Shown piece by piece: positions 35,096 through 43,795 of a stretch of DNA of 64,000 bases (position 1 is the stretch's first letter; each line of letters starts with the position of its first letter). Both the position numbers and the translations under genes were made by a program. This DNA is from an uncultured Bacteroides sp. (GTDB taxonomy: Bacteria > Bacteroidota > Bacteroidia > Bacteroidales > GCA-2748055): the NCBI GenBank assembly GCA_964579515.1, contig CAZOHA010000001.1, positions 163,484 to 227,483 of the forward strand. The letters are read 5' to 3'. The notes under the pieces were generated by a model, which was not told the origin of the DNA, did no database searches, and saw only the letters and a program-made list of their open reading frames with translations.

Positions 35096-35101
35096 AAGAT
35101 C

Positions 35102-37429
35102 ATGAAAACTCATCAGACTACCTTGTTGGTATTTACCATGATTATGGGGATGGCCGCCGCGTGCGATACCTCCCGGCAAAAAGTTTCCACGGCCGGTGCA
35201 GAGATCGAAGCCAGGGTCGACTCTCTGATGGCCCTGATGACCCTGGAGGAAAAGATCGGTCAGCTGAATGCGCCCGGGGCCGGCGATATCACCACCGGAC
35301 TGGCCAACAATACAGGGATCGTTCCCAAGGTGAAAGAAGGAAAAGTGGGGGCCCTGCTGAACATCCGGGGCATCGACAGGATCCATGAGGTTCAGCGCAT
35401 CGCCGTGGAAGAGAGCCGGCTGGGGATCCCCCTCATTTTCGCCATGGATGTGATCCACGGTCACAGAACATTGTTCCCGATTCCCCTGGGAATGGCCGCC
35501 TCCTGGGACATGGAAATGATCGAAAAATCGGCCCGGATGGCCGCTAAAGAGGCCTCTGCGGAAGGGATCGCCCTCACCTTTTCTCCCATGGTGGATATTT
35601 GCCGGGATCCCAGGTGGGGCCGGATCGCGGAGGGACCCGGGGAGGATCCGTTCCTGGGAAGTGAGATGGCCCGGGCCATGGTGAACGGATACCAGCAGGG
35701 GGACCTTTCCGATCCGCGGACCCTGATGGGGTGCGTGAAGCATTTTGCCCTGTACGGGGCAGCGGAAGCGGGGAGGGATTACAACACGGTAGAGATGAGC
35801 CGCCCCAGGATGTACAATGACTATTTTCCTCCTTTCATTGCCGCGGTGGATGCCGGAGTGGGCAGTGTGATGGCTGCATTCAACGATGTGGACGGGGTAC
35901 CGGCCACCGGTAACGAATGGCTGATGACCGGGGTGCTCCGGGAACAATGGAATTTTGACGGATTTGTGATTTCCGATTATACCGGGGTCAATGAAATGAT
36001 CGACCATGGTGTTGGAGAGGATCTCCTGGCTGTTTCGGCCCTGGCCCTGGAGGCGGGCATCGATATGGATATGGTGGGAGAGGGTTTTCTGACCACACTG
36101 GCCCGGTCGGTGGAACAGGGCATTATCAGTGAAGGACAGATCGATCAGGCCTGCCGGAGAGTGTTGACCGCCAAGTTCAAACTGGGCCTGTTCGACGATC
36201 CCTATCGCTACGGCGACCATGAGCGGGCTGCCGCAGAGGTATTCACCACGGAGAACAGGGAGTTTGCCCGCGAGGTGGCAGCCGCATCGTGTGTATTGCT
36301 GAAGAATGAGGGTGATCTTCTGCCCCTGGAGGGCAACGGGACCATCGGAGTGATCGGCCCGCTGGGGAACAACCGGGAGAATATGGCCGGCACGTGGAGT
36401 GTGGCGGGCGAGTTCAGCAAATGTGTCTCTCTGCTGGACGGGCTGGAGGAGGCCCTGGGCGACCGGGCTGAGATCCTTTATGCCAGGGGGTCCAATTTCG
36501 TAAGAGATCCGGATCTGGATGCCCGGATCAGTGTGTTCGGAAAACCCACTTACCGGGATGAACGGTCCGAACAGGCCATGTTGAGCGAGGCACTGGAGGT
36601 GGCCTCCCGGAGCGATGTGATCATCGCCGCCATCGGCGAGGCGGCCGAAATGTCGGGCGAGAGTTCCAGCCGTTCCGATATAGGGATCCCCGATGTCCAG
36701 ATGGACCTTCTGAAGGCACTGGTGAAATCAGGGAAACCGGTGGTCCTGGTCCTGTTCTCCGGAAGACCCCTGGCCATTCCGTGGGCGGCAGAGAATGTGC
36801 CGGCCATTCTGAACGTCTGGTTCGGGGGGACGGAGGCAGGGAATGCCATCTCAGATCTCCTGCTGGGAAAGGTCAATCCTTCGGGAAAACTCCCGGTTAC
36901 CTTTCCCAGGAACCTGGGACAGGTGCCGATCTATCATGCCATGAAATCGACCGGCCGGCCGCTGGAGGGAGAGTGGTTCCAGAAATTCCGCTCCAACTAC
37001 CTGGATATTCCTAATACCCCGCTCTACCCGTTCGGCCACGGGCTCAGCTACAGCAGTTTTGAATATGGTGAGATCCGGCTCGATAAAACCCGGGCCACCG
37101 GCGAAGAGACCCTCACCGCTTCGGTGGTGGTCACCAACACCGGACCTGTCGATGGCCATGAGATCGTGCAGCTCTATATCCACGATGTGGTGGCTTCCGC
37201 CACAAGGCCCGATAAAGAATTGAAGGGATTCCGGAAAGTGAGGATCCCTGCCGGGGAGAGTGTGGAGGTCACTTTCGGGATCACCCCGGAGCTCCTGAAA
37301 TACCACCGCTACAATGAAGACGCCGGTTTCAGGGAGATCATCCACGAGTGGGAGCCAGGCGAGTTCGAATTGATGATCGGGACCAGCTCCGTCCGGGTGG
37401 ATACGGCGAGGATCGTTTGGATGCGCTAG
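35102..37429 (+). CDS. Glycoside hydrolase family 3 beta-glucosidase lipoprotein
   Basis: Lipoprotein signal (GMAAACDTS). GH3 hallmarks KHFALYGAAEAGRDYN and GFVISDY (nucleophile Asp context), plus a C-terminal fibronectin-like domain. 775 aa. Confidence 0.93.
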   Translation: MKTHQTTLLVFTMIMGMAAACDTSRQKVSTAGAEIEARVDSLMALMTLEEKIGQLNAPGAGDITTGLANNTGIVPKVKEGKVGALLNIRGIDRIHEVQRIAVEESRLGIPLIFAMDVIHGHRTLFPIPLGMAASWDMEMIEKSARMAAKEASAEGIALTFSPMVDICRDPRWGRIAEGPGEDPFLGSEMARAMVNGYQQGDLSDPRTLMGCVKHFALYGAAEAGRDYNTVEMSRPRMYNDYFPPFIAAVDAGVGSVMAAFNDVDGVPATGNEWLMTGVLREQWNFDGFVISDYTGVNEMIDHGVGEDLLAVSALALEAGIDMDMVGEGFLTTLARSVEQGIISEGQIDQACRRVLTAKFKLGLFDDPYRYGDHERAAAEVFTTENREFAREVAAASCVLLKNEGDLLPLEGNGTIGVIGPLGNNRENMAGTWSVAGEFSKCVSLLDGLEEALGDRAEILYARGSNFVRDPDLDARISVFGKPTYRDERSEQAMLSEALEVASRSDVIIAAIGEAAEMSGESSSRSDIGIPDVQMDLLKALVKSGKPVVLVLFSGRPLAIPWAAENVPAILNVWFGGTEAGNAISDLLLGKVNPSGKLPVTFPRNLGQVPIYHAMKSTGRPLEGEWFQKFRSNYLDIPNTPLYPFGHGLSYSSFEYGEIRLDKTRATGEETLTASVVVTNTGPVDGHEIVQLYIHDVVASATRPDKELKGFRKVRIPAGESVEVTFGITPELLKYHRYNEDAGFREIIHEWEPGEFELMIGTSSVRVDTARIVWMR

Positions 37430-37438
37430 CCGGGTCTT

Positions 37439-37561
37439 TCATTCATACCTCAGTGCATCGGAGGGATTCAGGCGGGCTGCCCTTCTTCCCTGGAAATAGA
37501 CGGTGACCATGGCGAAGATCATCGCAATGAGAGCTGTCAACAGGAAGAAATGTACCCCCAT
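37439..37561 (-). pseudogene. Remnant of the C-terminus of an FtsX/MacB-type ABC permease (last TM helix plus tail)
   Basis: My own translation of the minus strand gives MGVHFFLLTALIAMIFAMVTVYFQGRRAARLNPSDALRYE-stop. The tail ARLNPSDALRYE is the typical FtsX-family C-terminal signature. Only 47 codons are open, and they directly abut the ZIP stop codon in the same frame. Confidence 0.55.
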
Positions 37562-37582
37562 CTGAATGAGGAAGATCCTTTC

Positions 37583-38329
37583 CTATCCGTTGGTTATGAA
37601 TTGAAATATCACCATCAGGATGGCCGCCATGGCTACGATCAGGGCCACATTCTCTTTTTTAGCATGGCCGAGTGCATCCGGGAGGATTTCGGAGGCCACC
37701 ATCCATATCATGGCTCCGCCGGCCAGGCCCAGTCCCACGGGCAGGTATTGTTTGAATGAATCGACGAACAGGAAGGCGGGCACGGCAAGGAGCGGTTGGG
37801 GGATGCTGGAGAACACCGCCCAGAGAAACACTTTCCACCAGCGGATCCCCATGGGCAGGAGCACGATGCTGATGGCGATCCCTTCGGGAATGTTATGGAC
37901 GGCAATGGCCACCGAGATGAACACCCCGAACCTGTTACCGTCCCCAAAAGCGACGCCCACCCCGATACCTTCGGCAAAGGAATGCAGGGTCATCACTCCC
38001 ACGATCATCAGGGCCTTCAATGCATCGGCCCCTCTCAGCTCACCGATCTGCACCCCATGATTGTCCGCCAGCTTCAGGTTCACCAGATGGATCAGGATCA
38101 GACCCGCCACGAATCCTGCGGCGGTTTTCCACAGGTGAAACGATAATCCTTCATCTACCAGCATGAAACTGGCCGCCAGCATTAAGCCTGCCGCCAGGGC
38201 ATTGGCATAACCCACATATTTCTTCTTAATACTCCTGACCAGCAGGAAGGGAATGGCACCAAGACCTGTGGCCACAGCAGTGATGCCGGCAAAGAGCAAT
38301 ACGGATAACCAGTGTATTTGAAAGGTCAA
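37583..38329 (-). CDS. ZIP-family divalent metal transporter (ZupT-like)
   Basis: 248 aa, about 8 TM segments. His-containing TM motifs HSFAEGIGVG and HNIPEGIAIS are typical of the ZIP family. It starts 24 nt after the upstream porin-cytochrome stop. Confidence 0.88.
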   Translation of the reverse strand: MTFQIHWLSVLLFAGITAVATGLGAIPFLLVRSIKKKYVGYANALAAGLMLAASFMLVDEGLSFHLWKTAAGFVAGLILIHLVNLKLADNHGVQIGELRGADALKALMIVGVMTLHSFAEGIGVGVAFGDGNRFGVFISVAIAVHNIPEGIAISIVLLPMGIRWWKVFLWAVFSSIPQPLLAVPAFLFVDSFKQYLPVGLGLAGGAMIWMVASEILPDALGHAKKENVALIVAMAAILMVIFQFITNG

Positions 38330-38353
38330 TCAGGTGAAGTATTATGTGAGTTG

Positions 38354-39574
38354 TCAAAAAGCAGATGTAAATCCAAGGGAGAACCTGCTGACCTGGTTTT
38401 CAGGATCCGTGAATATCTGAGTGTACTCTGCCCCCAGCCGGATATTCCTTCGTATCAGATAGCCCACATGAAGAGTGGCAGAGTGATAGTCGGCAGGATT
38501 GAATCCGGAATTCACATAATTGTACAGTCCCACCGCGTACCAGTCGCTCTGATCTCCGTTCGGGCTGTATATCAACTCTCCCAATAAACCGTGTGTATGG
38601 ATATTATTCACGGTGGTCGCGTCTGATGCAGAGAGATACACCTGGTCATCGTTCCTGAACAGATATTGCATATTGATCTCCATCTTGTCGGCGATGCTGA
38701 TGGTAGCATCGGCACCCATATAGGCGGCAGCGTTTGTAATCGTCTGTTCTGCAGGGTGAATCAGATCTTCTCTGCCGTAATATCCCACCACACCGACTCG
38801 CAGATAATCTCCCGCACTCTGGGAAATCCTGCCCAGGAAGCTTTTATGGGGATCTTTGTCAAACAACCTGTTTTCTCCTGCTTCCGACAGTCCGTTCCCA
38901 TTGACCATCATGAACACCAGATCGGTTGAGGTGGGTAATCCATAGGTCACCATCACACCCCTGTCGTACTTCATGGTGATGTCGGAAACGCCTATCTGAC
39001 TTGTATATAGGTGATAATCTTCAAAGGTGAGTCTCAGTTCCCGTTTAAAAAGCGGATCCGACACCTGGAACTGTCCGAGGACCACATCGATACCCGTGTT
39101 GAAGAGCCGGTCGTACATCAGGTAGGCATCTTCCACTCCGGCCACCTCGCCATGCTCGCTCAGATAAAAATAGAAGTAATAGCTGAAATGTTCAGATAGT
39201 TGTCCGCCCGACAGTAGCTTGATCAAATAGGGAGCCGACAGATCCGTTTTACCATTTTCGGCCACTCTGGCCTGGAGATAACCGTCCATCCTGACTGCCA
39301 CGGGAAGGTTTCTGAGCAGGGAAAGCTTCTGGTCGCCGGTCTCCACGAAATATCTCGGAGCCTGGTATTCCGTCAGCTTGAATCCATCTCCGGCATAACT
39401 ATCCCCATAGGGTTTCAGTTTCGGAATGGAGGGAGTATGGCATGTGATGCAGCTGATATTGTATTTCCGTGCAAATGCCGGGATCGCCCGGGCTTTTTTA
39501 TCATTCACCATCAGAAAAATAAAGTGGATGAGAAATACCACCGGGATAATGATCAGAAATCGTTTGATATTCAT
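38354..39574 (-). CDS. Fused monoheme cytochrome c / outer-membrane beta-barrel protein (Cyc2-like porin-cytochrome candidate)
   Basis: Signal peptide followed by a single CXXCH (CITCH, nt 39437-39451) within PAFARKYNISCITCHTPSIPKLKPYGDSYAGDGF. About 350 aa of Tyr/Gly-rich alternating sequence then ends GFTSAF (C-terminal Phe, an OMP-type beta-signal). Confidence 0.6.
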   Translation of the reverse strand: MNIKRFLIIIPVVFLIHFIFLMVNDKKARAIPAFARKYNISCITCHTPSIPKLKPYGDSYAGDGFKLTEYQAPRYFVETGDQKLSLLRNLPVAVRMDGYLQARVAENGKTDLSAPYLIKLLSGGQLSEHFSYYFYFYLSEHGEVAGVEDAYLMYDRLFNTGIDVVLGQFQVSDPLFKRELRLTFEDYHLYTSQIGVSDITMKYDRGVMVTYGLPTSTDLVFMMVNGNGLSEAGENRLFDKDPHKSFLGRISQSAGDYLRVGVVGYYGREDLIHPAEQTITNAAAYMGADATISIADKMEINMQYLFRNDDQVYLSASDATTVNNIHTHGLLGELIYSPNGDQSDWYAVGLYNYVNSGFNPADYHSATLHVGYLIRRNIRLGAEYTQIFTDPENQVSRFSLGFTSAF

Positions 39575-39585
39575 GAGGTTGATCT

Positions 39586-40959
39586 TTAAGGAAGTATTTG
39601 TATATCAATTTCTTGTGTATTGACGATCATGGCCTGATACTCCTCCTCGGGTACCTGGAGATATTCACCCACCGGTTTCACCAGCAGCCGGTAGTTCATG
39701 ACGGCCGAGACGGTCAGCGTTCCTGTGGCGATATCATAAGGGACATCGAATGTATAGGTCTCCACTTTGGTCTCCCGGGGGCCTATCCGGTAGTCCACCC
39801 CCAGCGAATCGGTGTTCCATTGCATGATGGTCATTCGTCCCTGGGGATCGAAAAACGGCATCCGGAAGATGCGGTCACCGATGGGTACTTCCTCCCTGCG
39901 AATTCCTTCGAAGTTTTCGATGCCGAGAGGCACACCGAGGTCCTGGTAGGCAAGCGTATCACTGGCAATCGTATATTCCTCCCCTTTAAATCCTTTCTTA
40001 TCGACCGGAAGGTGATACGTTTTCCCATCTTCATCAACGGCTTCCACATGCAGCCATACGATCCGGTCTTCCACGGAACCGGTGGGAAATTTGTGCCCTG
40101 CTTTCTGATTGAACAAAGTAATCGTAAAAACAACCGGAGTGCCTGGTAATGCTTCCTGCTGGTCGGGTGTGATCCGGATCTCGACCACCCCGTTCAGTTT
40201 CCCGGGATCGTGTGCGCCATTGAACAGATGCATCCGGGCATCCTCGTAGGAAGCCCCCATGATGGCGGTTTTTCCCGGGCCATCGGGCATATGGCAATCC
40301 TGGCAGACCACCCCTTCTTCATAATAGGGACCTTCTTTCAACTCCAGGTGGGTGGATTTCACCCAGGTGCCGAAGGGGCTCTTTTCGTTGTGACAGATCC
40401 CGCAGAATTCAGCGGTCCGGTAAAATGAGGAGGTATCGATCTCATGAACGGGAGAGGATTCTTTTCCTTTCCGGGTGGTGTACTTGGTTTTCCCGACATC
40501 CATTTCATAGTTGTGATTAAATGGTGTGTCGCCCGTGTATCCGGTGATATTGTGGCAGATTTCGCACGACACCGATTCGTTGGCCCTTGGATTTCCGGAA
40601 GGGTCGGGCGGAGGCATATCCCCGGTCAGGTAGGCCATGGGAGTGTGGCACCCGTTGCATCCTTCATGCACACCTTTCATGTTCTCATCATTTTCTGAAT
40701 GGGCCACCGCCAGATCGAAATACTCGATCTCGTCCCAGTGATGATTATAGGCATCGGACATCATTGCCTGGTCCCACTGCTGATAGAACAGTTTATGGCA
40801 CTGGTTGCAATATTCGGGGGTCTGGAAGTCCCCGTACTGGTATTGTTTCTTTTGCTCCTGGTGCAGTCCGAACGACAGGCCTGTGAGAGTGACCCCTCCA
40901 AGGAACAGGTAGCCTGAGATCGTGTGGAAGGTTTTCATACCCATCCCCGGCCAAAACAT
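39586..40959 (-). CDS. Membrane-anchored or secreted pentaheme c-type cytochrome with a heme-free C-terminal domain
   Basis: Five CXXCH motifs (CNQCH, CNGCH, CEICH, CGICH, CQDCH) lie in the first roughly 230 aa after a hydrophobic N-terminal segment (ISGYLFLGGVTLTGLSFGL). The last roughly 200 aa have no Cys or heme motif. Alternative ATG starts at 40944 and 40938. Confidence 0.85.
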   Translation of the reverse strand: MFWPGMGMKTFHTISGYLFLGGVTLTGLSFGLHQEQKKQYQYGDFQTPEYCNQCHKLFYQQWDQAMMSDAYNHHWDEIEYFDLAVAHSENDENMKGVHEGCNGCHTPMAYLTGDMPPPDPSGNPRANESVSCEICHNITGYTGDTPFNHNYEMDVGKTKYTTRKGKESSPVHEIDTSSFYRTAEFCGICHNEKSPFGTWVKSTHLELKEGPYYEEGVVCQDCHMPDGPGKTAIMGASYEDARMHLFNGAHDPGKLNGVVEIRITPDQQEALPGTPVVFTITLFNQKAGHKFPTGSVEDRIVWLHVEAVDEDGKTYHLPVDKKGFKGEEYTIASDTLAYQDLGVPLGIENFEGIRREEVPIGDRIFRMPFFDPQGRMTIMQWNTDSLGVDYRIGPRETKVETYTFDVPYDIATGTLTVSAVMNYRLLVKPVGEYLQVPEEEYQAMIVNTQEIDIQILP

Positions 40960-41174
40960 GTACCTCAGTGGTGCTTATTTGGAATACAAGCAGGTATCAA
41001 CTAAACGAGAAGGCTCTAAAAGCATGACATACAAGGGCATTAGAATCGACAGTCCCTGAATTCGAATTGATTCTAATTAAGAATATGATGGAATGATCTC
41101 TCCATTTGAACCGCTTCCTCCACACCTTGAGTAATTTATTCTACAATCAGGGCTCCGCTGTGAATTTCCGGAAA

Positions 41175-41365
41175 ATGGAGACGTCGACTACTTCCTGGCC
41201 AGACCCGGGGTCACCGAGGGATTTCCATTCAATGATACGGCCCTGGTCTTTAAGGTCATGGGTAAAATGTTTGCCCTGCTGGATCTCTCAGAAAACAGCC
41301 GGGGTATCAGCCTGAAATGTGATCCGCAGATGCTGTGGAGTTGCGTGTGTTTTACGAGGAAGTGA
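41175..41365 (+). pseudogene. Degraded 5' fragment of an mmcQ/yjbR-family gene
   Basis: In the mmcQ frame it reads DYFLARPGVTEGFPFNDTALVFKVMGKMFALLDLSENSRGISLKCDPQM. A 1-nt deletion relative to the intact copy then leads to an early stop at 41363-41365. The only nearby ATG (41175) is out of frame with this reading. Confidence 0.6.
41189..41347 (+). repeat. Direct repeat, left copy (mmcQ 5' region)
   Basis: By my hand alignment, about 159 nt match 42468-42627 with 6 mismatches and 1 single-nt gap. This includes an 86-nt perfectly identical core (GGATTTCCATTC...AGCCGGGG). Confidence 0.9.
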
Positions 41366-41515
41366 AGCGAGGCTCCTATTCGAGCAGGGTCATAAAGGGG
41401 TTGTTTTATGTTGAAGCGGTTACTTCCGTGTTGGGAAACACTGTGTAATCCTGAGTTCATACTAAATATCGCGCACCGATATTTGGTATATTTACTGTAC
41501 ATATAATATATCAAG

Positions 41516-41818
41516 GTGGAAAAACAGTACATTAAAATAGGCAAAAAGAAGAACAAATTGCTATTGCGCAGATCACTATTCTGGGATGTACCTGCACATG
41601 CCCTGGATTTGGAAAAGAATAAAAGATTGATTCTTGAGAGAGTGTTTTCCAGGGGAAATATCGAGGAATTCATTTCAATAAATCAGCATTATACGAAGGA
41701 GGAGATTCGAGAAACAGTTAAGAGGATTGGCTTTCTGGATAAGAAAACTCTGAATTTTATCTCAAGAACCTATCATATAAATCCTGCCGACTTTAGATGT
41801 TACAAAGAGAATCTGTAG
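41516..41818 (+). CDS. Small protein upstream of the AbiEii toxin; candidate cognate antitoxin (DUF6922-like)
   Basis: 100 aa with a GTG start. Contains SLFWDVPAHALDLEKNKRLILERVFSRG. It overlaps the toxin start by 22 nt. Confidence 0.55.
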   Translation: MEKQYIKIGKKKNKLLLRRSLFWDVPAHALDLEKNKRLILERVFSRGNIEEFISINQHYTKEEIRETVKRIGFLDKKTLNFISRTYHINPADFRCYKENL

Positions 41819-42435
41819 ATAAAAGAGTTCTGGATTCGATCTTTGCCCTTCAGGAGAAGGAGTATCTGAAAGATTTCTATCTGGTAGGTGGAACCGGACT
41901 CGCATTGATTATCGGCCACAGGAAATCAGTGGATATCGACCTTTTCACATCAAAGGATTTTGATGCGGAGCACATTCTCGAAAAGCTTGAATCTGATTTT
42001 GCCTTCCACATGGATTATTTGGGAGGGAATACCATCAAAGGAAGTGTAGCAGGGATTAAAGTGGATCTTCTGGCTCGCAAATATCCCCTTATTGGTGACA
42101 CAATAGAGATGGAGAAATTCCGAATTGCTTCTATGGATGATATAGCTGCGATGAAGATTAATTCTGTGGCCAATGACGGTACCAGAGTCAAAGATTTCAT
42201 CGACCTGTACTTCCTGATTACTGAACGAGGGTTCACTATCGATAGACTACTTGAAAACTTCAAAGCAAAGTATTCCCAAAGGAATGCATTGCATGCATTG
42301 AAAAGCTTGGTTTATTTTGAAGATGTGAACTTAAACGACTGGCCTGTAATGATTAAGAATAAAAGCATAAGCTGGGATGAGATCATGATAGTTTTGAGAA
42401 ATGCCTGTGAAGAGTATATCAGGAAGATAACCTGA
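41797..42435 (+). CDS. Nucleotidyltransferase AbiEii/AbiGii-family toxin (type IV TA / abortive-infection family)
   Basis: 212 aa. FYLVGGTGLALIIGHRKSVDIDLF and DDIAAMKINSVANDGTRVKDFIDLYFL fit the DUF1814/AbiEii pattern. Confidence 0.75.
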   Translation: MLQRESVDKRVLDSIFALQEKEYLKDFYLVGGTGLALIIGHRKSVDIDLFTSKDFDAEHILEKLESDFAFHMDYLGGNTIKGSVAGIKVDLLARKYPLIGDTIEMEKFRIASMDDIAAMKINSVANDGTRVKDFIDLYFLITERGFTIDRLLENFKAKYSQRNALHALKSLVYFEDVNLNDWPVMIKNKSISWDEIMIVLRNACEEYIRKIT

Positions 42436-42443
42436 CTGAATCC

Positions 42444-42737
42444 ATGAACATCGAAGAGATCCGCGAATACTGCCTGGCCAGGCCCGGAGTCACCGAAGGA
42501 TTTCCATTCAATGATACGGCCCTGGTCTTTAAGGTCATGGGTAAAATGTTTGCCCTGCTGGATCTCTCAGAAAACAGCCGGGGAATCAGCCTGAAATGTG
42601 ATCCGCAGATGGCTGTGGAGATGCGTGACCGATACCCGGAGGTGACACCGGCCTACCACTTTAACAAGAAGCACTGGAACACGGTGGATCCCAGCGGCAG
42701 CCTGCCCGAAAAACTTTTCCTGGAGCTCATCACATGA
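42444..42737 (+). CDS. MmcQ/YjbR-family DNA-binding protein
   Basis: MNIEEIREYCLARPGVTEGFPFNDTALVFKVMGKMFALL...YHFNKKHWNTV is typical of the YjbR fold. At 97 aa it may be slightly short at the C-terminus. Confidence 0.85.
   Translation: MNIEEIREYCLARPGVTEGFPFNDTALVFKVMGKMFALLDLSENSRGISLKCDPQMAVEMRDRYPEVTPAYHFNKKHWNTVDPSGSLPEKLFLELIT
42468..42627 (+). repeat. Direct repeat, right copy (inside intact mmcQ)
   Basis: Partner of 41189-41347; see that entry. Confidence 0.9.
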
Positions 42738-42742
42738 ATTTA

Positions 42743-43795
42743 TTATAGCGCATACATCCGTTCCGCATTCTTGTAATAGATCTTCTCCAGCACGGGCAGC
42801 GGGAGATCCAGGCCACGGTACTCCTTCACTTTGTCGTCCTGGGTGAACATCCGGTCGGTGGTAAAATAGAGCCAGTCGTCCATCCAGGTTTGCCCGAGGA
42901 TCTGCCGGGCCCTTTGAGCACTCCATCCCGGCTCTCCGTTGCCGCGGATCCCGATATCGGTGCCGTACAACAGCCTGTCCTGGTATTGGATGAGGAAGTC
43001 CCGGACCTTATCACGGTCCTGGTATTTGAAATGGGAAATACGGGCGGCCATATCGACCGTCATGTTCGGGTACTGATCCAGTGACCGGGCCAAATATTCC
43101 ACGTCCCACTCCTGGCTTCCCAGGTGGCATCCCACATATTTCAGCCCGGGGTGCTTTTCCAGCATCCGGTCCCGGGCGGCGATGAGCTCTTCGTAGGAGG
43201 GGTATTCAGGATGAAGGTACATGTGATACTCGGGGTGGCTGGCGAAATAGGAGCTGTCGCCCCGGACGGTCATCTCGCCGAGGGGCAGCCAGCAGTTCTT
43301 CGGTTCGGCGTTGTGGTTCACCAGGGTTTTTCCCCTGGCTTCCACGTAATCGAATATGGGATCGAACCGGGGATCGTCGATCAGGATAAACTCGCCGGAG
43401 GAATCCCGGAAGGTCATCCCGATATCCTTCCAGACCTTCAGGGCGACAGCACCTTCATCGAAGCTCTTTTCCAGCCAGTCCAGGGTGGTCTCTTCCCAGC
43501 CGGGCTCTCCGAAACCATCCATGGAGAAGGTGGTGGCATAGAAAATCTGATCCGGGTGATGGTCGTGCAAGTTCCTGGCGTAAGCATACTCCTGTTCGAT
43601 CTCCGGCCAGGGATTGGCGCGGGTCACCAGGGTGATCAGCCGCAGATGGTTCTCCCCGATGACCTCCACGAACGATTCATCGCAGGTCTCCAGGTGGACA
43701 TGGGCATCGATCTTCGGAAAGGTTTGGAAGGCCGGGTCCGGAGTTCCGGAGCAGCCGGTAAGCAGCAGGACGATCAGCACAAAAGTTGTTCTCAT
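42743..43795 (-). CDS. Amidohydrolase-family (metal-dependent TIM-barrel hydrolase) lipoprotein
   Basis: The start is set at MRTTFVLIVLLLTGCSG (ATG 43795; the tracked ORF is 19 codons longer). The metal motif IDAHVHL lies near the N-terminus. Confidence 0.75.
   Translation of the reverse strand: MRTTFVLIVLLLTGCSGTPDPAFQTFPKIDAHVHLETCDESFVEVIGENHLRLITLVTRANPWPEIEQEYAYARNLHDHHPDQIFYATTFSMDGFGEPGWEETTLDWLEKSFDEGAVALKVWKDIGMTFRDSSGEFILIDDPRFDPIFDYVEARGKTLVNHNAEPKNCWLPLGEMTVRGDSSYFASHPEYHMYLHPEYPSYEELIAARDRMLEKHPGLKYVGCHLGSQEWDVEYLARSLDQYPNMTVDMAARISHFKYQDRDKVRDFLIQYQDRLLYGTDIGIRGNGEPGWSAQRARQILGQTWMDDWLYFTTDRMFTQDDKVKEYRGLDLPLPVLEKIYYKNAERMYAL

Follow-up and report, generated by a model that had tools for sequence, protein, structure and literature searches.

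The yjbR (mmcQ) gene of an uncultured Bacteroides sp. (Bacteroidales; GCA-2748055) is located in a 64-kb stretch of contig CAZOHA010000001.1, hereafter the window (all coordinates are positions within this stretch, and all the relatives compared with it are metagenome-assembled genomes, MAGs). A 1280-nt cassette that carries a toxin-antitoxin (TA) operon interrupts the resident gene between codons 75 and 76; all the features involved are on the + strand. On the left, codons 1–75 of yjbR, which we denote the head of the gene, persist as a pseudogene (41168..41388) that has no start codon, has lost 3 nt and is frameshifted by 1 nt near 41333. The left head is followed by a degenerate copy (41389..41416; GTCATAAAGGGGTTGTTTTATGTTGAA, nearest variant GTCATATAGGAGTTGTTTTATACTGTAA) of the conserved 28-nt M-box described below, and then by the leader of the TA operon (41465..41515; …TATTTGGTATATTTACTGTACAT…), a putative promoter or operator that is conserved at the DNA level in the AbiEii cassettes of other genomes. 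The leader precedes the genes for a 100-aa DUF6922 protein, the putative antitoxin (41516..41818), and for a 212-aa AbiEii family nucleotidyltransferase, the putative toxin (41797..42435). A second, cassette-borne yjbR head (codons 1–75, 42444..42668) starts 8 nt past the AbiEii stop codon and joins the resident tail (codons 76–97 and the stop codon, 42669..42737), which resembles that of an uninterrupted yjbR gene in the same genus (genome G007). The entire cassette (M-box, TA cargo and head) spans 41389..42668, such that the yjbR frame is restored on the right and the original head is left dead on the left.

The two heads form a long direct repeat. The repeat search aligns 41185–41332 with 42464–42611 at 96% identity over 148 nt, with a spacing of 1279 nt that is matched by the 1280-nt length of the M-box-to-head unit (41389–42668). 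Identity of the core (41185..41332, + strand) is 95–96%, with weaker identity up to about 41350. As the preliminary description of this locus had it, the repeat is nearly identical and contains an 86-nt perfect run; the 1-nt gap is placed by MAFFT after ...CCGCAGAT, and beyond it the match goes on at 74% (41332–41365 vs 42612–42645). The AT-rich character of the insert is equally clear from the GC profile, with 38.6% GC in the cassette vs 53.4% and 57.6% in the flanks, and 35–43% in the inter-repeat DNA vs 50–62% in most of the flank DNA (200-nt windows). The same description took the left copy for a frameshifted fragment ending near 41347, and the right copy for the 5′ part of an intact gene. 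The frameshift and the assignment of 42444–42737 to YjbR (PF04237, E = 2e-27) stand, and the extents have to be revised. Because the M-box is found at 41389–41416, the left copy must reach codon 75, at 41388, its codons 58–75 being decayed (YEEVKRGSYSSR vs YEEVQPGYHMSK in G007); the duplicated part is the whole 225-nt head. The right-hand gene, in turn, encodes only 97 aa and is ~60 nt shorter at the 3′ end than the gene of G007, with the conserved IDHSY..LV end removed; it terminates with ...LELIT* right before a convergent amidohydrolase gene (42700–42745).

The same arrangement is found well beyond the window, in the multi-yjbR regions of same-genus genomes and among 77 named loci from MAGs of uncultured Bacteroidales. 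At least two yjbR copies or fragments are present in 11 of 24 same-genus genomes, and the junction occurs in 18 of the 77 loci; as many as five copies stand in one array, one end of which is formed by a full-length gene (115 aa), and a few orphan yjbR tails are also present. Among about 55 partial copies, 24 end exactly at codon 75, and each of these ends runs straight into the M-box (consensus RTCATTAT-nnnn-TTnT-nn-TATACTGTAA), which is borne by 51 unique junctions from same-genus MAGs and sediment metagenomes. Conservation of the M-box is bipartite, with one block at +2 to +8 (TCATTaT), free positions at +9 to +12 and a second block at +19 to +28 (TATACTGTAA), the information dropping to zero at +29; part of this pattern is imposed by the search filter, which leaves positions +6, +8, +13, +14, +16 and +28 unaffected. 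Heads of only 14–39 nt still occupy correct junctions, and codons 63–75 of the head behave as one cassette end, being followed by the M-box in locus L053 and by the yjbR tail in locus L029. The earlier suggestion that yjbR is an insertion hotspot is therefore correct as far as recurrence is concerned; however, the hotspot is not at the 5′ end of the gene, the crossover being located after codon 75, two-thirds into it. The M-box also has a weak inverted half-site (CATTAT/CAGTAT). The window copy is the sole M-box in its genome, and no yjbR is present elsewhere in that genome. One locus (L023:4775–5010, genome G003) breaks the codon-75 rule: its left yjbR fragment stops at codon 64 with no M-box after it, and the next gene is ORF6N-like and oppositely oriented.

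A strict version of the junction pattern, which overlooks known degenerate copies, gave zero control matches. Within the genus it is present in 7 of 49 genomes; 42 genomes that represent 13 other genera of the family all lack it. In JGI metagenomes, 22 of 26 matches sit directly after a yjbR head. A shorter pattern (TTYAAYAAGRTCATWNW) that was searched across the order was dropped, given that all 30 fetched loci lacked yjbR nearby and control counts were similar. The possibility that the cassettes are carried by phages was rejected as well: the four IMG/VR matches represent one unrelated conserved sequence with no yjbR (...TTTAACAAGATCATTCAACTGTTTGTATGCTGTAGG..., identical in the viral contigs L171–L174), a chance match to the junction pattern. 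The same box is present, with no yjbR match, in L158 and L169, and no true head|M-box junction was detected in the viral contigs.

The boundaries of the mobile unit are most clearly delineated by a common cassette with an AAA_14-DUF4143 gene that is shared by two loci with unrelated yjbR genes, L055 and L063. Over the M-box, the cargo and the whole right head, the two sequences are 95–99% identical, and the match is lost at the third base of codon 75; outside the cassette, the left heads are 72–75% identical, the tails 73%, and the flanks are unalignable. About 13 other cassette pairs are of high identity, and for 8 of them the similarity starts 3–33 nt before the M-box. The AbiEii cassette of the window itself is present in at least seven assemblies, with the toxin gene always stopping 8–11 nt ahead of the yjbR start, and its homology at the DNA level (about 76%, six genomes) extends from ~41465 to 42669–42680, i.e., to codons 75–79. 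A cargo-less unit is found next to a yraN-like gene in L152 (650–980, Ga0307377_10102077), where a yjbR head and an M-box are followed by a ~65-nt spacer and a full yjbR. Taken together with the other pairs and with the interchangeable ends in L053 and L029, the L055/L063 boundaries and the empty unit of L152 define the mobile unit as M-box, cargo and yjbR codons 1–75, inserted between codons 75 and 76. Units of this composition recur at the exact junction and stack in arrays in same-genus uncultured Bacteroidales.

Among the 101 open reading frames (ORFs) of the arrays, the commonest cargo is the AAA_14-DUF4143 ATPase (16 ORFs, matching the PADLOC defence candidate PDC-S01), along with six ORF6N-like proteins (matching PDC-S05) and five AbiEii and four DUF6922 genes that form DUF6922/AbiEii pairs. 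The remaining ORFs encode transporters, regulators, sulfatases, glycosidases and similar proteins. Thus, different cargo between duplicated yjbR heads, which the preliminary description proposed to look for in other genomes, does exist and comprises AAA_14-DUF4143 genes, ORF6N-like genes and metabolic operons. The cargo is found in both orientations and ranges from single genes to multi-gene operons; the small defence-type cassettes have 34–39% GC, and the large metabolic ones match the GC content of the host. One representative of PDC-S05 has been reported to protect against phages, and the one PDC-S01 system tested gave no protection (preprint 10.1101/2024.09.26.614923). A role of the AAA_14-DUF4143 ATPase as the mobility enzyme is conceivable but not supported, given that it is absent from the cassette of the window and from many others and that it matches a defence-candidate family.

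The pair of genes in the window had been described as a 100-aa protein overlapping a 212-aa protein of the AbiEii family, an assignment that a profile search could overturn. Both parts of this description are upheld: the product of 41797–42435 matches AbiEii (PF08843) with 64.1 bits against a cut-off of 22.5 (E = 2.4e-17), and that of 41516–41818 matches DUF6922 (E = 2e-16), the two reading frames overlapping by 22 nt. The AbiEii protein additionally matches 14 PADLOC AbiEii models (best E = 8e-11); with 212 aa it is short, covering profile positions 5–205 of 238, and no NCBIfam model matches it. The nucleotidyltransferase motif is LVGGTGLALIIGHRKSVDIDLF, and G31, S44, D46, D48 and D90, which we take, from general knowledge of the fold, to be the Pol-beta catalytic residues, are invariant in seven homologues. 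Both genes are intact and of the same length as their homologues (66–76% and 53–70% aa identity), and the overlapping two-gene layout is kept in six to seven loci. For the upstream protein, DUF6922 is the sole match, with none in NCBIfam, PADLOC or PDB sequences, and it does not qualify as an AbiEi-type winged-helix antitoxin. Searches of PDB sequences with both proteins returned nothing useful, and a literature search retrieved no paper that mentions DUF6922. The system accordingly resembles the AbiE type IV TA systems (AbiEi-AbiEii) in its AbiEii domain above threshold, its PADLOC AbiEii matches, the intact Pol-beta-type motif and the small upstream gene that overlaps the toxin gene; it differs from them in that the partner is DUF6922 rather than AbiEi, the toxin is short and NCBIfam gives no match. 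The TA pair is ordinary by itself; it is its setting that is unusual. A conserved TATTTAGTATATTTACTGTACAT-like sequence with a TGTACA palindrome (41478–41505) lies ~15–40 nt upstream of the DUF6922 start, in the same place as in L028, L053, L029 and L030, and possibly is the promoter or operator of the TA genes.

The history of the yjbR gene in the window can be traced by comparison with G007, which has the empty site that was to be sought in related genomes: a single intact 117-aa yjbR next to the orthologous amidohydrolase (85% aa identity) and GFO oxidoreductase (88% aa identity) genes. In the tail (42669–42734), 45 of 66 nt match G007 and only 32–33 of 66 match the tails at other AbiEii loci. 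Conversely, the core of the right head is 77–79% identical to the cassette-borne heads of L028 and L053 and 66% identical to G007. Of the 39 nt at the end of the left head, 27 match G007 and 21 match the right copy, and yet the core of this head is 95% identical to the right copy. The two copies, then, derive from different alleles, as previously surmised, the left end being nearer to G007 and the right head nearer to the heads of other AbiEii cassettes, and the left head probably is the original head of the resident gene. This mosaic is best explained by leftward displacement of the native head and by a later gene conversion in which the cassette-borne head overwrote its core; we infer gene conversion from the near-identity of the cores of heads that belong to different allele types. 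Given the decay of the M-box, the left head and the yjbR 3′ end, the cassette of the window probably is now immobile.

Upstream of yjbR, between this gene and a glucoamylase-like gene, the window contains a ~6-kb block (35100–41160) that is absent from G007, where only ~210 nt separate the two genes. The block encodes a GH3 glycosidase, a ZIP transporter, a multihaem cytochrome and a 406-aa protein without a Pfam match (porin-like by eye only). We considered this block (35.1–41.1 kb) as a further yjbR cassette and rejected the idea, given that there is no head fragment or M-box at its ends.

The preliminary description reported no integrase or transposase near the repeat, and this is borne out on a larger scale. 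A phmmer search with nine integrase seeds detected no tyrosine recombinase within 10 kb on either side of any locus, and PF00589 has no match on the array contigs. Serine recombinases are lacking in four array-bearing genomes, G000, G020, G042 and G043, that of the window being among them. G043, where at least three cassettes occur in a row, encodes no tyrosine recombinases other than two Xer-like proteins (~303 aa).

How do the cassettes move? We propose, with slightly better than even confidence, that they are moved by a site-specific reaction with the enzyme supplied in trans. The precise boundaries of the unit, the very short heads at correct junctions and the binding-site-like conservation of the M-box are the reasons to favor such a reaction. 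Under this scenario, the cassettes would move as circles, and the head|M-box junction of a circle would recombine with the head|tail junction of a yjbR gene, a reaction of the attP × attB type or, in integron terms, attC × attI. For the cassette of the window, the circle junction is predicted to consist of the right head end ...TTTAACAAG joined to GTCATAAAGG (or, in another rendering, ...CCTACCACTTTAACAAG and GTCATAAAGGGG), and the empty-site junction of the left-head end joined to AAGCACTGGAAC. Among the classical enzymes, housekeeping Xer-like recombinases would be the only candidates in some of the array-bearing genomes. The 148-nt cores of the two heads of the window would have been homogenised afterwards by gene conversion, and the cassette would have been retained for an addictive or protective effect of the TA pair, as might be expected from two intact genes of homologue length.

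Several observations weigh against this proposal, and some of them speak for the principal alternative, namely, that RecA drives the entire process with no dedicated recombinase, an explanation that we consider possible but rather unlikely. Here, cassettes would loop out between neighbouring heads and integrate again in any yjbR, through either one homologous crossover of the Campbell type or, after DNA uptake, a double crossover, forming a ‘flexible genomic islet’; the head and the M-box would represent an ancestral repeat, the copies of which gene conversion keeps alike. Indeed, no recombinase has been identified for the cassettes, none is encoded near any array, and gene conversion between heads is visible in the window. 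Furthermore, L043 and L072 share the left head together with the M-box and the cargo (92–97% identity), with the right head only 63–80% identical, and three further pairs likewise extend into the left head, making four such pairs. The shared block of L043 (4700–7706) and L072 (3261–6100) begins precisely with the start codon (ATG) of the left head and ends ~265 nt short of the right yjbR, the leader and coding sequence of which are 63–80% identical, with the right head at the background level of divergence, a pattern opposite to that in L055/L063. Much of the cargo consists of ordinary metabolic and regulatory operons with native-like GC content, and the junction seems to be limited to one genus, so that shared descent adds to its conservation. 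The M-box does not readily conform to known recombination sites either. Single-sequence folding of 24 junctions yielded no common or consistent hairpin, and a hairpin or attC-like site was rejected on this basis (no attC-specific model was run). Nor does the junction align convincingly with the one plausible candidate dif of the genome of the window. This candidate dif (TTGTCCTATAATTAATATTATGTTAAAT) lies outside the window, on contig C2, ~44 nt from one end, and has the XerD arm of E. coli. Finally, the native origin proposed for the end of the left head is based on 39 nt.

Nevertheless, if RecA-mediated crossovers could fall anywhere in the 225 nt of the head, the two boundaries of the L055/L063 cassette would be unlikely to coincide, in both genomes, with its very 3′ end, and heads of 14–39 nt would hardly be expected at correct junctions. 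The bipartite M-box with its free 4-nt spacer and sharp end also has the appearance of a protein-binding site rather than that of a neutrally inherited sequence, and RecA alone leaves the entry of new cargo between the M-box and the head unexplained. Given that the left head is included in the shared block of L043/L072 and of the three further pairs, we conclude that homologous exchange through the heads also occurs, and probably site-specific and homologous exchange both operate.

It appears improbable that the cassettes are remnants of a larger classical element, such as a genomic island or an integrative mobilizable element, that targeted yjbR with its own integrase, subsequently deleted. 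The duplicated part of the target and the restored frame do reproduce the layout of gene-targeting integrative elements, and the copy in the window is visibly decayed. However, the dozens of cassettes bounded by the M-box and the head, many of them single-gene and one empty (L152), all lack an integrase, and its independent, complete loss every time is implausible.

Tandem duplication of the 5′ part of yjbR followed by an unrelated TA insertion, or an artefact of MAG assembly, is highly improbable: repeats do break assemblies, with many arrays stopping at contig ends and a 1253-nt Logan contig bounded by repeat cores, but numerous assemblies obtained independently contain the same junction and the same TA cassette in differing gene neighbourhoods, and the two heads are of different allele types outside the core. 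That Logan contig (L144, SRR15425350_24234) is the sole public contig with an identical toxin; both its ends are inside the repeat cores and its length is near the repeat period, and a cycle in the assembly graph and a real circle are indistinguishable here. The amidohydrolase protein of the window, which was looked up for population polymorphism, has no public record.

The yjbR cassettes combine features of several known systems. Phage 21 and e14 insert in icd, bringing a replacement gene end, and elements of the ICESt1/ICESt3 type undergo tandem accretion of integrase-less cis-mobilizable elements (CIMEs). Like these, the yjbR cassettes have a piece of the target gene duplicated on both sides, the copy of the element rebuilds the frame, the displaced piece decays, and repeated insertion at the regenerated site yields tandem arrays. 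Unlike these, they replace 225 nt, or two-thirds of the gene, from its 5′ side instead of a short 3′ end, neither carry an integrase nor have one nearby, and can consist of single-gene or empty units. With integrons and clusters of attC sites lacking integrases (CALINs), they share small cassettes of mostly one to few genes at one site, a conserved site-like boundary, TA and defence cargo and regeneration of the target site by insertion; the differences are the lack of IntI, a boundary that is a gene fragment and a 28-nt box rather than attC, cargo in both orientations and some multi-gene operons. Xer-dependent elements (IMEX, and the pdif modules of Acinetobacter plasmids) also lack a recombinase of their own, have ~28-nt boundary sites and frequently carry TA cargo, and the two Xer-like proteins of G043 are the only classical site-specific recombinases of that genome; the target, however, is inside yjbR and not at dif, and the junction shows no convincing register of XerC/XerD arms and spacer against the candidate dif. 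The yjbR cassettes accordingly lack the recombinase feature of gene-targeting elements, accretion elements and integrons, and their site differs from that of the Xer modules. A literature search found no description of integration, cassettes or a hotspot in yjbR/mmcQ.

By analogy with integrons, the codon 75/76 site could be regarded as attI-like and the head end with the M-box as attC-like, with a trans-acting recombinase that possibly is a Xer-like protein of the host. We tentatively raise the possibility that yjbR is a gene-capture platform in one sediment Bacteroidales genus, with cassettes enriched in single-gene defence candidates (PDC-S01, PDC-S05 and DUF6922-AbiEii). Classical integrons are rare in this phylum, and if an enzyme in trans moves the cassettes, these bacteria would possess an integron-like collection of defence and accessory genes, with the junction providing a defined site of ~40 nt through which the responsible recombinase could be identified. 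The arrays provide a natural inventory of single-gene systems that are candidates for defence, and DUF6922 is a new family of AbiEii partners. Even if homologous recombination alone were responsible, a portable gene fragment would still turn a housekeeping gene into an exchange point for cassettes.

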